NCBI GenBank assembly: GCA_019751935.1
Contig: JAIEMR010000095.1
Location: 1 to 33,188 of the forward strand
Source of the DNA: Alphaproteobacteria bacterium
Lineage (GTDB): Bacteria; Pseudomonadota; Alphaproteobacteria; Paracaedibacterales; CAIULA01
Length of the DNA: 33,188 bases
Direction of reading: 5' to 3'
Both the position numbers and the translations under genes were made by a program. The notes beneath the pieces were generated by a model. It did not search any database. It worked only from the letters and a program-made list of their open reading frames with translations, and was not told the origin of the DNA. Positions 27,596 to 29,359 of this stretch are shown piece after piece. How positions within the stretch are numbered: position 1 is the stretch's first letter; the number at the start of each line of letters is the position of its first letter.

Positions 27596-29359
27596 ATGAC
27601 AACTGTTACCCAGAAAACCAAACAAATTCTTGTGCTATGCGGGTCACTAATATTGACAGGATCTGCCTTTGCAGCCAGTAGCGGTGAGGGGGGTGATGAA
27701 AATGCACCGCCCAACACTCCTAGAACTACAGCCAGATTATTAACCTACCCCTCTCTTTTTAGTACAATTGGTAGCATGACAAATCGCATTGGAATTAATA
27801 GGGCGGTTAGAAATTTTTTTAGAGAGACTTACCCCGATGGCGTTGATTCAAAAGGATTGGATGAATTTAGGCAGCAGCTAGCAAGAGCGGGTTCTGGTGT
27901 AACTCCTTCTGTTTATGCGCATATTACTAACACACTTCTTCCTATGTATGCTTCACATATGGGGGAAGAGCCTAGTGGAGGCATCAAAAGAAGAGTGCCA
28001 TCATATGATGGTGATGATGAAAGAGACGGCTTTTCAAGAGCTTTGACTGTGAGGACGTCATCAAGAGCTCCTCGATCAATTTTGGGGGACATAACCGATA
28101 CAGTTGATGGAGCAATGTCTCCTTTGACTCTTCCTCCCCTTCTTCGTCTTCTAAGGGAGCCACGACCAGTAGTTCTTAGCTATATGGCAGAACCTTCCTC
28201 TCGAGGGAGGTCACGGTTAACATTGCCACCGATTACTGAAGAGTCTTCTTTTGTGGAGCCAGGTATCCGTCCTGCAACTTTTCTTTCTTCGATTCCATCT
28301 ATTTCGGAGGAGTTAAATAGAAGAATCATTGGCGAGGAGCCAGCAATGGCATCGCTTGCAACTGGCCTGCATGTTCATTATACGATTCAAGACGTTAATA
28401 GTACACTTGAGGCCCTTGGAAGATCTGTCCGTGTTCCTAAACAAAATATTTTTATGTGCGGACCAACTGGATGCGGTAAAACGGCTTCCGTAAAAGCTGC
28501 AGCTAAAAAACTAGGTAGAACCTTTTATGAGGCTGACACCAGCGGATTTACCAGGACAGGATATGTCGGAGATAGCGCTTCTTCAGTTATCATTGGCCTT
28601 ATCAAGGAAGCACAAAATCAAATTACAGACTTTGTTATAGGATCACCTGAATACAAGAGAAAGGTTATAGAACTTGTACAAAAAGGTATCGTGTTTTTAG
28701 ATGAATTTGATAAAATTGGTGCTAAAAAGTCTGGCGGTAGTGAGAGAGATATAGCGGGAACAGACGTTCAGTCTGAACTTTTGAAACTGATGGAAGGTAA
28801 AAAAATAACCGTAAAAGTTGACAAGGAAGACTATGCAATTGATACAACCGATATTCTCTTTATTGCAGGCGGGGCTTTTTCCTCAATTGAAAGAAAAGGC
28901 GGAGAACCCATTGGTCCAGATGCGTTTGTTGAAGCTGGATTTAGCGAGCAAGTCCTAGGACGTTTTGGTCGAAGAATTTTCTTTGAAGGCATGACTCCTG
29001 AAAAATTCGTAAGAATCCTTCACTCTGAAGAAGCATCCCCAATTGTCCAAAATTTATTGCTTTTACAAATGGGCTATGGGATTGACGTTAAATTTGATGA
29101 AGATGCTATGAGACTCATAGCTGAAAGAGGATATGCTATGCAAGCAGGTGTGAGGGGTCTTGCAACTATGGTGAATACTGCGGTTGATCCACTCATTCGC
29201 CGCAGTGAAGAGCTAAAAGGAACAACCTTTACAGTCGATAAAGCTTTTGCAGAGGCTAATCTTCCTAAAGTTGAGCCTAGAAAAAAGGCGGCAAAACCTT
29301 ATACTTTTGAAGACCATATTAGAGATCACCCCAGAGATGAGTATGGTTTTTATAGCTAA
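27596..29359 (+). CDS. ClpX/HslU-family AAA+ ATPase with an N-terminal signal peptide and a low-complexity extension
   Basis: AAGGAG lies 7 nt upstream of the ATG. Signal MTTVTQKTKQILVLCGSLILTGSAFA/AS. Residues about 30-235 are Pro/Ser/Arg/Gly-rich with two LTLPP motifs. Walker A GPTGCGKT (28460..28483), pore loop GYVG (28559..28570), Walker B GIVFLDEFDK (D369 and E370 at 28700..28705), ILFIAGGAF, and sensor-2 GVRGL. Confidence 0.8.
   Translation: MTTVTQKTKQILVLCGSLILTGSAFAASSGEGGDENAPPNTPRTTARLLTYPSLFSTIGSMTNRIGINRAVRNFFRETYPDGVDSKGLDEFRQQLARAGSGVTPSVYAHITNTLLPMYASHMGEEPSGGIKRRVPSYDGDDERDGFSRALTVRTSSRAPRSILGDITDTVDGAMSPLTLPPLLRLLREPRPVVLSYMAEPSSRGRSRLTLPPITEESSFVEPGIRPATFLSSIPSISEELNRRIIGEEPAMASLATGLHVHYTIQDVNSTLEALGRSVRVPKQNIFMCGPTGCGKTASVKAAAKKLGRTFYEADTSGFTRTGYVGDSASSVIIGLIKEAQNQITDFVIGSPEYKRKVIELVQKGIVFLDEFDKIGAKKSGGSERDIAGTDVQSELLKLMEGKKITVKVDKEDYAIDTTDILFIAGGAFSSIERKGGEPIGPDAFVEAGFSEQVLGRFGRRIFFEGMTPEKFVRILHSEEASPIVQNLLLLQMGYGIDVKFDEDAMRLIAERGYAMQAGVRGLATMVNTAVDPLIRRSEELKGTTFTVDKAFAEANLPKVEPRKKAAKPYTFEDHIRDHPRDEYGFYS

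Follow-up and report, generated by a model that had tools for sequence, protein, structure and literature searches.

Clp/Hsl unfoldases are known from textbooks as AAA+ machines of the cytoplasm. The locus described here raises the question why one of them should begin with an export signal, and where and with which partner such a motor would then work. It lies in the window, by which we mean the whole stretch of 33,188 nucleotides that was analysed, and consists of a complete ORF on the plus strand (27596..29359, 587 amino acids and a stop codon). The ATG is the first start codon downstream of the in-frame stop at 27551 and is preceded at a distance of 7 nucleotides by a Shine-Dalgarno sequence read from the sequence (AAGGAG, 27583..27588, plus strand), so that the start, which the initial annotation had called well supported, can be maintained. 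Direct checking of the sequence located all motifs quoted in that annotation where it had placed them: KTKQ at residues 7-10, ILVLCGSLILTGSAFA at 11-26, LTLPP at 177 and 208, IIGEEPA at 244, GPTGCGKT at 289, GYVG at 322, GIVFLDEFDK at 364, ILFIAGGAF at 420, GRFGRR at 455 and GVRGL at 518. The 587 amino acid protein combines a predicted Sec-type signal peptide with a complete AAA+ module of the ClpX/HslU type. A closely similar orthologue (81% identical) served as reference for dN/dS calculations; the ratio for the whole gene is 0.14 (against orthologue L059).

The AAA+ module with its large and small domain covers residues 228-556 (28277..29263, plus strand; Pfam, NCBIfam and Foldseek). The Pfam models AAA and AAA_2 match it at 1e-15, and in Foldseek the structural model matches ClpX and HslU with TM-scores (target) of 0.74-0.87, ClpX being the best match in sequence and in fold. 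The equivalog cut-offs are not reached: the scores are 151.2 bits for the ClpX model NF003745 (cut-off 359), 121.6 bits for the ClpX model TIGR00382 (cut-off 370.75) and 122.4 bits for the HslU model TIGR00390 (cut-off 362.45). All catalytic and pore residues are retained, as expected for the full ClpX/HslU-type module that had been proposed. The family shows no variation at G289, G292, G294 and K295 of the Walker A motif (GPTGCGKT, residues 289-296, 28460..28483, plus strand); the same holds for the family and for ClpX/HslU at G322, Y323 and G325 of the pore-1 loop (GYVG, residues 322-325, 28559..28570, plus strand). D369, E370, D372 and K373 of the Walker B motif (GIVFLDEFDK, 28685..28714, plus strand) are invariant, as are G518 and R520 of sensor-2 (GVRGL, 29147..29161, plus strand). 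In the arginine-finger region (GRFGRR, 28958..28975, plus strand), G455 and R456 are shared by all family members and by ClpX and HslU. ClpX thus shares with the protein the GYVG pore-1 loop, Walker A and B, the arginine finger and the sensor-2 motif GxRGL; the Walker B context is also similar to that of HslU. The ORF product is very probably an active AAA+ unfoldase.

The protein differs from ClpX in the absence of the C4 zinc N-domain, the RKH loop and the IGF loop. The absence of the zinc domain, noted before, was corroborated, since no match to zf-C4_ClpX (PF06689) was found at E<=1 and no CxxC...CxxC was seen in the alignment with canonical ClpX. Loss of the IGF loop was likewise found: the alignment against three canonical ClpX sequences contains a gap of approximately 26 columns in this segment, and the loop site is occupied by 16 residues, SSIERKGGEPIGPDAF (28880..28927, plus strand), which include neither IGF/LGF nor any other [ILV]GF tripeptide. 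In the PDB alignment, the ClpX stretch from residue 256 to 289 is reduced to residues 433-439 of the query, and the ClpX segment with the RKH loop, PPQGGRKHPQQEF, has no counterpart in the query. Because the zinc domain, the RKH loop and the IGF loop are missing, the protein is not expected to dock on ClpP in the known manner. HslU has no IGF loop either. The I-domain of HslU, approximately 130 amino acids between pore-1 and Walker B, is absent from the family; only 16-25 amino acids are found there, which in the window protein correspond to approximately residues 338-362 (28607..28681, plus strand; alignment with ClpX and HslU). This short insert falls at the I-domain junctions and is missing in P0010, P0011 and ClpX. 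The initial annotation had described the spacing between GYVG and Walker B as ClpX-like, which is correct as far as the missing I-domain is concerned but not for the exact spacing, since the insert is present.

Residues 1-26 (27596..27673, plus strand) form a predicted type-I Sec signal peptide according to heuristic n/h/c analysis, with KTKQ in the n-region, ILVLCGSLILTGS as h-region, AFA as c-region and a predicted cleavage between AFA and AS. The same analysis yields charges of +2/-0 for the n-region and +1/-3 for the c-flank; the type-I features found are the positive n-region, a hydrophobic core within the usual range of 7-15 residues, small residues at -3 and -1, and no lipobox. A lipoprotein was ruled out, since LVLC has a Leu in position -1 and does not qualify as a lipobox, and since its Cys varies among family members. 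The segment is the sole hydrophobic one in the whole protein. Its textbook layout recurs in all 11 close relatives (heuristic analysis) and in distant members (inspection); each of the 11 has a positive n-region, an uncharged h-region of 9-20 residues, a small-X-small site at 22-28 and an acidic flank. The signal codons are under purifying selection (dN/dS 0.21 against the 81% identical orthologue). Taken together, the layout across the family and this ratio identify the export signal as a conserved family trait rather than an accident of annotation, and export of the protein by Sec is probable.

The same segment might instead remain uncleaved and tether the AAA+ ring as a signal anchor to the periplasmic face of the inner membrane. 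This would agree with a 19-residue Kyte-Doolittle maximum of 1.81, which is over the usual transmembrane threshold, with an uncharged stretch of up to 20 residues in the window protein and with a charge bias that predicts an N-in/C-out topology. However, the genuinely hydrophobic core is only 12-16 residues long and contains G, S and T, the uncharged stretch shrinks to 9-12 residues in some members, and a small-X-small site follows the core in every member (AFA, AFS, TFS, ALA, VFA, AYA). The long acidic and disordered regions also fit a released protein, and we regard a signal anchor as improbable.

Approximately 200 low-complexity residues had been described between the signal peptide and the AAA+ module. 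Both copies of LTLPP are present there, but the region is not uniformly of low complexity, since it consists of three parts. Directly after the predicted cleavage site lies a 16 amino acid acidic/Pro-rich segment, ASSGEGGDENAPPNTP (residues 27-42, 27674..27721, plus strand), which is modelled as disordered; an acidic patch at this place recurs throughout the family. It is followed by a conserved four-helix N-domain (residues 43-122, 27722..27961, plus strand), defined by the AF2 model and by family conservation. Its pLDDT is approximately 80-90 in the full-length AF2 model and 81.7 (pTM 0.71) when the domain is modelled alone, and all family members share Y51 and F74. The third part is a disordered linker rich in R, P, S and L (residues 123-227, approximately 105 amino acids, 27962..28276, plus strand; pLDDT <35) that carries LTLPP at 28124-28138 and 28217-28231 (plus strand). 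The linker varies in length within the family and is nearly missing in P0009-P0011; its dN/dS of 0.32 is the highest among the segments, yet still purifying. Pfam gave no matches outside the AAA+ region. A Foldseek comparison of the stand-alone N-domain model with the PDB found no match (best E approximately 1), and a search of the PDB with its sequence profile returned only the DnaI N-domain, at a non-significant E of 0.06. The order of an N-terminal recognition domain, a flexible tether and a single AAA+ ring is also that of ClpX, and the four-helix domain is a candidate for substrate or adaptor binding.

Approximately 28 relatives from metagenomes were found, down to approximately 25% identity; the distant members (P0121-P0209) were drawn from an unannotated library. 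Nearly all keep the signal peptide, the acidic patch behind the cleavage site, the four-helix N-domain and the disordered linker. They form a single clade apart from ClpX and HslU with a bootstrap of 79/100 (HslU control 100/100), and we tentatively place the gene in a third, undescribed branch of the ClpX/HslU clade of AAA+ unfoldases. A word-indexed search with the 22-sequence family alignment added nothing to the 11 close members already known; the next matches were ClpX. In a scan of metagenome contigs the identity was <=32% among the matches listed, on generic ClpX motifs, and in a scan of genome contigs L001 and L002 were the only family loci. Among the carriers is one with the label 'Patescibacteria group', and the family was not found in named, sequenced Holosporales genomes. 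An 80% orthologue is carried by assembly GCA_019749935.1; the top-ranking canonical ClpX match, P0025, comes from another assembly, GCA_054035755.1, and none of the canonical ClpX sequences was traced to GCA_019749935.1. The gene stands alone, with neither conserved neighbours nor a nearby protease partner gene: no HslV-like or ClpP-like gene was found near the family genes in the window and nine family loci, and the gene is not linked to clpP as clpX is. Our literature search found no description of the family, no secreted ClpX-like protein, in agreement with the initial annotation, and no bacterial AAA+ unfoldase exported by Sec.

The other end of the protein bears on the partner. A flexible C-terminal linker of low to medium pLDDT (residues 557-584, 29264..29347, plus strand) leads to the tripeptide F585-Y586-S587 (FYS, 29348..29356, plus strand), which in the family alignment represents a conserved Hb-[Y/F]-X tail of the HbYX type. 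Depending on the family member, 48 to 98 residues separate sensor-2 from the C-terminus, while the last three positions are fixed. In 25 family sequences the Hb position is occupied by Met (16), Phe (5), Leu (3) or Tyr (1), the penultimate aromatic residue is Tyr in 19 and Phe in six, and the last residue can be any of eight types, S, N or T in about half. The tail is found in 24 of approximately 28 family members and in approximately three of 231 other ClpX/HslU relatives. It is absent from P0123, P0130, P0178 and P0241, at least one of which (P0178) is itself a truncated sequence. PDZ ligands and the LC3-interacting W-x-x-L were ruled out as descriptions of the tail, since they fit subsets only; Hb-[YF]-X alone fits the entire family. 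As read from the sequence, the register is that of the HbYX motif (defined in PMC11475706), which docks activators on 20S proteasomes, and we rather favour a docking function for the tail. It sits at the place of the HslU tail that activates HslV. The protein had been described as protease-independent, and this becomes doubtful because of the conserved tail with HbYX register.

The alignment with the HslU tail ([YF]-[IV]-L) also opens the possibility that the protein is a cytoplasmic HslU-like paralogue, whose N-terminus is no working export signal or confers peripheral membrane association, and whose tail docks on the bacterium's own HslV. The small insert at the I-domain site and the HslU-like Walker B region are consistent with this, and the cytoplasm would solve the ATP supply without special explanation. 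On the other hand, the features of the signal peptide are conserved while the sequences diverge to approximately 25% identity, the aromatic residue is penultimate here and third from the end in HslU, the gene never adjoins hslV, and the family branches outside the HslU clade. A paralogue of this kind is therefore unlikely to account for the locus.

Where an exported motor would obtain ATP depends on the lifestyle of its carrier. The window stems from an obligate protist endosymbiont of the Holosporales/Paracaedibacteraceae type; the closest named relatives of its GlmU are from Ca. Finniella, Ca. Odyssella and Ca. Bealeia. An obligate association with hosts characterises the Holosporineae, many of which reside in the cytoplasm of the host (PMC11909080); together with the GlmU relatives this supports the assignment to an obligately host-associated lineage. 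A related Paracaedibacter-like symbiont, found free in the cytoplasm of its host, has 158 proteins scored positive by SignalP, mostly orphans (PMC8163844). It also encodes an ATP/ADP translocase, CPBP_00565. Life free in the host cytoplasm together with this translocase requires host ATP in the periplasm. The premise of the initial annotation that the periplasm contains no ATP therefore fails for such a lifestyle, and a periplasmic site of action must be reckoned with. Of that earlier interpretation, export, the motor and the loss of ClpP docking stand, while protease independence is doubtful and the ATP-free periplasm does not hold for this lifestyle.

The motor could accordingly be a periplasmic resident that is exported by Sec, kept in the periplasm and supplied with host ATP through porins. 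There it might remodel or extract envelope or secreted proteins or pass them to a periplasmic partner, and would thus parallel in bacteria what CLPB/SKD3 and YME1L are among the AAA+ machines of the mitochondrial intermembrane space. CLPB is active in the intermembrane space, the homologue of the periplasm (PMC9934407). The evidence for export is the same as for an effector that reaches the host, and the related symbiont with its translocase must have ATP in its periplasm. The literature documents no way by which Sec substrates could cross the outer membrane in Holosporineae, and the reviews name only a T6SS. The T6SS does not carry Sec substrates. PDZ domains of HtrA, Tsp and Ctp favour a hydrophobic C-terminal residue, to which the polar last residue (S/N/T) in approximately half of the tails is a poor fit. 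Against periplasmic residence also stand that no periplasmic partner is evident, that no HslV-like or ClpP-like gene lies close to the family genes, and that a disordered, protease-sensitive linker of approximately 100 residues would be unusual there. Residence in the periplasm is the main rival to the explanation that we prefer, although we rate it as somewhat unlikely. A role as stand-in for the T6SS ATPase ClpV was ruled out, since sheath recycling is cytoplasmic and the protein has an export signal; ClpV is missing from the listed T6SS genes of the related symbiont.

The explanation that we prefer, with a probability of about 0.35, is an exported unfoldase that is fuelled by host ATP and whose tails dock on a ring-shaped partner, most specifically the host 20S proteasome. 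As the conserved signal peptide suggests, the unfolded precursor would be exported by SecB/SecA/SecYEG and cleaved by signal peptidase I after AFA26. In an extracytoplasmic compartment with host-derived ATP the mature protein would then assemble into an ATP-dependent hexameric ring, for which the conservation of all ATPase, arginine-finger, sensor and GYVG pore residues argues. Judged by the architecture, the four-helix N-domain on its flexible tether of approximately 100 residues may pick substrates or adaptors, similar to the mode of working of the ClpX N-domain, and the GYVG pore would thread the substrates. Six flexible C-terminal tails (hydrophobic-[Tyr/Phe]-any) would dock the ring on its partner, on the same principle as HslU docks on HslV, and PAN, Rpt and Mpa on 20S proteasomes. 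Docked on the host 20S proteasome, the ring would become part of a chimeric machine that degrades proteins in the host cytosol independently of ubiquitin.

To our knowledge, the lineage of the bacterium lacks a 20S proteasome of its own. Since the tail has the HbYX register, the carrier is an obligate symbiont of a eukaryote and an own 20S is lacking, the host 20S would be the likeliest partner of the tail, although as a specific assignment it is itself questionable. The human 20S proteasome tolerates either Phe or Tyr as penultimate residue. In the Hb position multivalent activators have some latitude, whereas monovalent peptides need Tyr there; the archaeal rules stress Tyr (PMC8907193). The predominance of Met at the Hb position and the six of 25 tails with Phe instead of Tyr speak against the preferred explanation, and a three-residue motif is a weak pointer to one specific partner such as the host 20S. 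Further points against it are the four members that lack the tail, the failure to find the family in named, sequenced Holosporales genomes, the carrier labelled 'Patescibacteria group' and the missing record of an outer-membrane passage for Sec substrates, since the protein would reach the host 20S only by crossing the outer membrane. The known HbYX activators (PAN, Rpt2/3/5, Mpa/ARC, Cdc48/p97, PA200/Blm10) resemble the protein in the hydrophobic-Tyr/Phe-any tripeptide at the end of a flexible tail of a ring-forming protein, and in the ATPases among them the motif also resides on a substrate-threading AAA+ motor. These ATPases carry N-terminal coiled-coil/OB domains and, as far as we know, all belong to the classical AAA clade and none to the ClpX/HslU clade, whereas the protein described here is a bacterial ClpX/HslU-clade member that is predicted to be Sec-exported, from a lineage without its own 20S. 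The full scenario, a secreted unfoldase that caps the host 20S via its HbYX tail and thereby creates a hybrid symbiont-host protease for host proteins chosen by the N-domain without ubiquitin, is somewhat unlikely. If it were true, amino-acid harvest or the removal of host defence factors would be possible purposes.

An exported unfoldase in the host cytosol might also work without a protease, as a stand-alone unfoldase or disaggregase, in line with the earlier idea of a remodelling effector, which fits all of the anatomy. Its tail would then have a target different from the 20S, such as the PUB/PUL-domain cofactors to which the similar tail of p97/Cdc48 binds, or serve as a signal for a second secretion step. 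The p97/Cdc48 tail is a known binding site of cofactors. We know of no secretion signals at the extreme C-terminus for Sec-dependent routes, which is a point against the latter variant; furthermore, nothing points to a specific alternative partner, and in the closest relatives with a docking tail (HslU) the tail serves peptidase activation. The C-terminus of p97/Cdc48 is itself of the HbYX type (PMC11475706). A remodeller of this kind has a low probability.

AAA+ motors with N-terminal targeting are known from eukaryotes. Torsins are AAA+ machines of the ER lumen. HSP101 of the Plasmodium PTEX, human CLPB/SKD3 and YME1L are Clp/Hsp100-related and work in non-cytosolic compartments that are still supplied with ATP (PMC6550532, PMC9934407). 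Unlike the protein described here, all four are eukaryotic, not of the ClpX/HslU type and devoid of an HbYX tail. The combination of an export signal with a proteasome-docking motif points to a secreted machine, not described so far, by which the host proteasome may be hijacked. It might represent a new class of effector, a motor that does mechanical work on host proteins, and the HbYX-type tail might turn it into a 'regulatory particle' of bacterial origin for the eukaryotic 20S proteasome. Should the protein stay in the periplasm, the periplasm of an intracellular symbiont would be an ATP-fuelled compartment like the mitochondrial intermembrane space, which would bear on the origin of organelle-like proteostasis in endosymbiosis. 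The family also offers a natural set of HbYX variants (Met/Leu/Phe - Tyr/Phe - any) for the study of proteasome gate opening.

Several further candidates were rejected. Scans for promoters and terminators gave counts equal to the level of shuffled sequences. A functional link with the upstream tamB was ruled out, because the neighbours differ in P0002, P0007, P0009 and P0010, and an anti-phage defence ATPase (PADLOC) was ruled out because the match to IetA covers only a 29-residue P-loop stretch (E 5.6e-5). A targeting module in common with the other exported orphans of the window was dismissed, as no similarity was found; the window contains secB and another six orphan ORFs that begin with a signal peptide. 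The GC content of 0.39-0.42, which is that of the rest of the window, and the flanking core genes exclude a horizontal-transfer island.

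The AAA+ gene (27596..29359, + strand) encodes a candidate exported unfoldase of 587 amino acids. Its ATG is the first start codon after the in-frame stop at 27551 and is preceded 7 nt upstream by AAGGAG, which supports the start chosen in the initial annotation, and the motifs listed there were each found in place. A Pfam search returned only AAA, AAA_2 and a sub-threshold ClpB_D2-small match, with no match to zf-C4_ClpX. The best NCBIfam models were ClpX (151 bits) and HslU (122 bits), both far below their equivalog cut-offs (359 and 362, respectively). PDB sequence searches and Foldseek with the AlphaFold model identify the module as ClpX/HslU type (TM-score normalised to the target 0.74-0.87). 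By the defining features of ClpX and HslU, the protein belongs to neither.

Searching 5.8 billion proteins identified ten full-length relatives with 95% to 41% identity. A profile search against 1.84 billion cluster representatives contributed about 17 more distant ones (P0121, P0123-P0125, P0130-P0134, P0136, P0147, P0161, P0178, P0183, P0188, P0209, P0241), and one further member is encoded in L002, a GTDB-representative locus. A neighbour-joining tree was calculated from the AAA+ modules of the family, 25 canonical ClpX, 15 HslU and 40 other relatives. All family members join in a single clade, which lies outside ClpX as well as HslU (bootstrap 79/100 for the family core clade, 100/100 for the HslU control). 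By automatic annotation, databases label these proteins just "AAA family ATPase" or "ClpX", and no description of the family was found in the literature. The AAA+ module is complete: within the family there is no variation in Walker A, GYVG, Walker B (DE), R456 of the arginine finger or R520 of sensor-2. Judged by its sequences, the family is a catalytically complete AAA+ motor with pore loops and a new branch of the ClpX/HslU clade; the protein is expected to form hexamers.

In line with the initial annotation, alignment with ClpX gave no counterpart of the zinc finger or of the segment of approximately 26 residues containing the IGF loop; an equivalent of the RKH loop is missing as well. Without these elements, ClpP docking of the known kind is impossible for the family. 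None of the family loci examined has a protease gene near the AAA+ gene. The HslU I-domain is likewise absent, as had been proposed, and precisely at its insertion point the window's subclade carries an insert of 16-25 residues. In the alignment, the C-termini of the family coincide with the C-terminal tail of HslU, the HslV-activating peptide, which suggests that the principle of tail docking is retained. The mature protein has just two cysteines, C288 and C293 (28457..28474), which flank the P-loop (MCGPTGCGKT); C288 occurs only in the window's subclade. A redox switch formed by this C-x4-C pair across Walker A, with oxidation in the periplasm and reduction in the host cytosol, is pure speculation.

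A flexible linker leads to the C-terminus, which lies 48 to 98 residues beyond sensor-2 across the family. In 25 family sequences, the third position from the end is hydrophobic (Hb; M in 16, F in five, L in three, Y in one) and the penultimate one aromatic (Y in 19, F in six), while eight different residues occur at the last position, which is polar in half of the sequences. Three fixed terminal positions behind a linker free in length and sequence are what would be expected of a tethered docking peptide, and docking is probably achieved through these tails. Among 263 proteins of the ClpX/HslU clade that were compared, 27 end in Hb-[YF]-X. A crude rule flagged 19 of them as signal-peptide-like; five more are family members overlooked by this rule (P0005, a fragment, P0125, P0147, P0161 and P0209), and only three are unrelated. 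The HslU tail is [YF]-[IV]-L with the aromatic residue third from the end, whereas the penultimate aromatic residue of the family corresponds to the register of the HbYX motif. HbYX consists of a hydrophobic residue, Tyr and any residue in an obligatory C-terminal position, and is inserted into the alpha-ring pockets of the 20S proteasome by PAN, Rpt2/3/5, Cdc48 and other activators (PMC11475706). The human 20S prefers penultimate Phe or Tyr, and with multivalent activators it is permissive at the Hb position (PMC8907193).

The N-terminus carries the sole hydrophobic segment of the protein. Throughout the family, the n-region has a charge of +2 to +4 without acidic residues and is followed by an uncharged run of 9-20 residues, with a hydrophobic core of 12-16 residues including G, S and T, and a small-X-small site at position 22-28 (AFA|AS in the window protein). 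Comparison with the 81%-identical orthologue gave a dN/dS of 0.21 for the signal-segment codons, showing that they are translated and constrained. Sec export and cleavage are therefore predicted from these features. The following part, initially annotated as 200 low-complexity residues, actually comprises an acidic patch, a four-helix domain and a disordered linker. Nearly all family members have the acidic patch (27674..27721) directly after the predicted cleavage site (GEGGDE, DDGSDGGE, EGQD, QDKDE, DSESDD, STSGGDD, DNGSENEGD, GPDDHDE, DSDGSDDD); it could be a simple export aid or a second-step sorting signal. The N-domain (residues 43-122; modelled alone with pLDDT 81.7 and pTM 0.71) has Y51 and F74 invariant in the family; searches by fold and by sequence profile gave no match. 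It may select substrates. The length of the linker is highly variable, from about 105 residues in the window protein to nearly nil in the relatives P0009-P0011.

The window has a GC content of about 40%, unbroken at the AAA+ gene, and contains the alphaproteobacterial core genes tamB, dapD, dapE, glmU, thyX, cydA, recR and secB. The nearest named GlmU proteins are those of Ca. Finniella inopinata (55%), Ca. Odyssella acanthamoebae (48%) and Ca. Bealeia paramacronuclearis (46%), all Holosporales/Paracaedibacteraceae. This lineage is obligately tied to eukaryotes, mainly protists, and often resides in the host cytoplasm (PMC11909080); the carrier of the AAA+ gene thus belongs to a host-dependent lineage. 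The related symbiont Ca. Bodocaedibacter lives free in the host cytoplasm and has the Sec pathway including SecB, a T6SS and 158 SignalP-positive proteins, mostly lineage-specific orphans (PMC8163844). The gene order tamB - AAA+ - dapD - dapE - Bax1-I is shared with the 80% orthologue; in more distant relatives the neighbours change. The AAA+ gene probably has its own promoter. An AT-rich intergenic region of 507 bp (27089..27595) separates it from tamB, and the single sigma-70-like match upstream (27499-27528) does not exceed what shuffled sequences give by chance.

According to the initial annotation the periplasm has no ATP, a premise that fails here, as Ca. Bodocaedibacter encodes an ATP/ADP translocase (PMC8163844). 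Such an inner-membrane antiporter implies that the periplasm contains host ATP, and therefore two compartments are possible. We favour the host cytosol, where the protein would dock on the host 20S, because the tail fits the HbYX register better than the HslU or PDZ-ligand rules, because this lineage is not known to possess its own 20S and because effectors typically have long disordered linkers. Action in the symbiont periplasm is nearly as likely, since an outer-membrane route for Sec substrates is undocumented in this lineage. As a motor the protein would work like ClpX and HslU, and it may also be a proteasome cap like PAN or the Rpt subunits. Docking on the host 20S, if true, would make it a categorically new effector type.

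Six further ORFs of the window without Pfam match start with Sec-signal-like N-termini: 701..2746 (-), 3022..5112 (+), 5891..6601 (+), 9091..9993 (-), 10414..11910 (-) and 16361..17146 (+). Two paralogue pairs are found among them, 701..2746 with 10414..11910 (29% over 477 amino acids, E 5e-45), both with an acidic patch directly past the predicted cleavage site, and 9091..9993 with 16361..17146 (31% over 188 amino acids, E 4e-23). This dense set of predicted exported orphans possibly represents effectors. SecB holds large precursors unfolded for post-translational export, and the 587-residue AAA+ precursor would need to be kept unfolded in this way; secB (17166..17636, -; PF02556, E 2.8e-50) is present in the window together with the seven signal-peptide ORFs. 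A stretch of approximately 1.7 kb (17637..19365), otherwise without long ORFs, contains an ORF of 152 codons (18728..19186, +) that weakly resembles the C-terminal part of the abortive-infection protein AbiTii, with a score below threshold (E 7.7e-6, 26.7 bits, cut-off 27.6).

The profile search also revealed other odd ClpX-like architectures, none of which has an Hb-[YF]-X tail: P0126, P0127 and P0129 (776-987 amino acids) carry two ClpX-like modules in tandem behind N-terminal hydrophobic segments, which are possibly bilobed (Inc-like); P0122 (1238 amino acids) has three such modules in tandem, and P0158 (762 amino acids) fuses one to an FtsH-like N-terminal half; P0128 is a further case. 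Although the L002 MAG bears the label "Patescibacteria group", MCP-like and EAL-domain genes occur in the locus, so that the binning or the label may be wrong. Adjoining the family gene of L002 (9725..10972) is a 429-residue orphan (11964..13253, -) that has a signal peptide and begins with an RG/GRG-rich stretch of low complexity.
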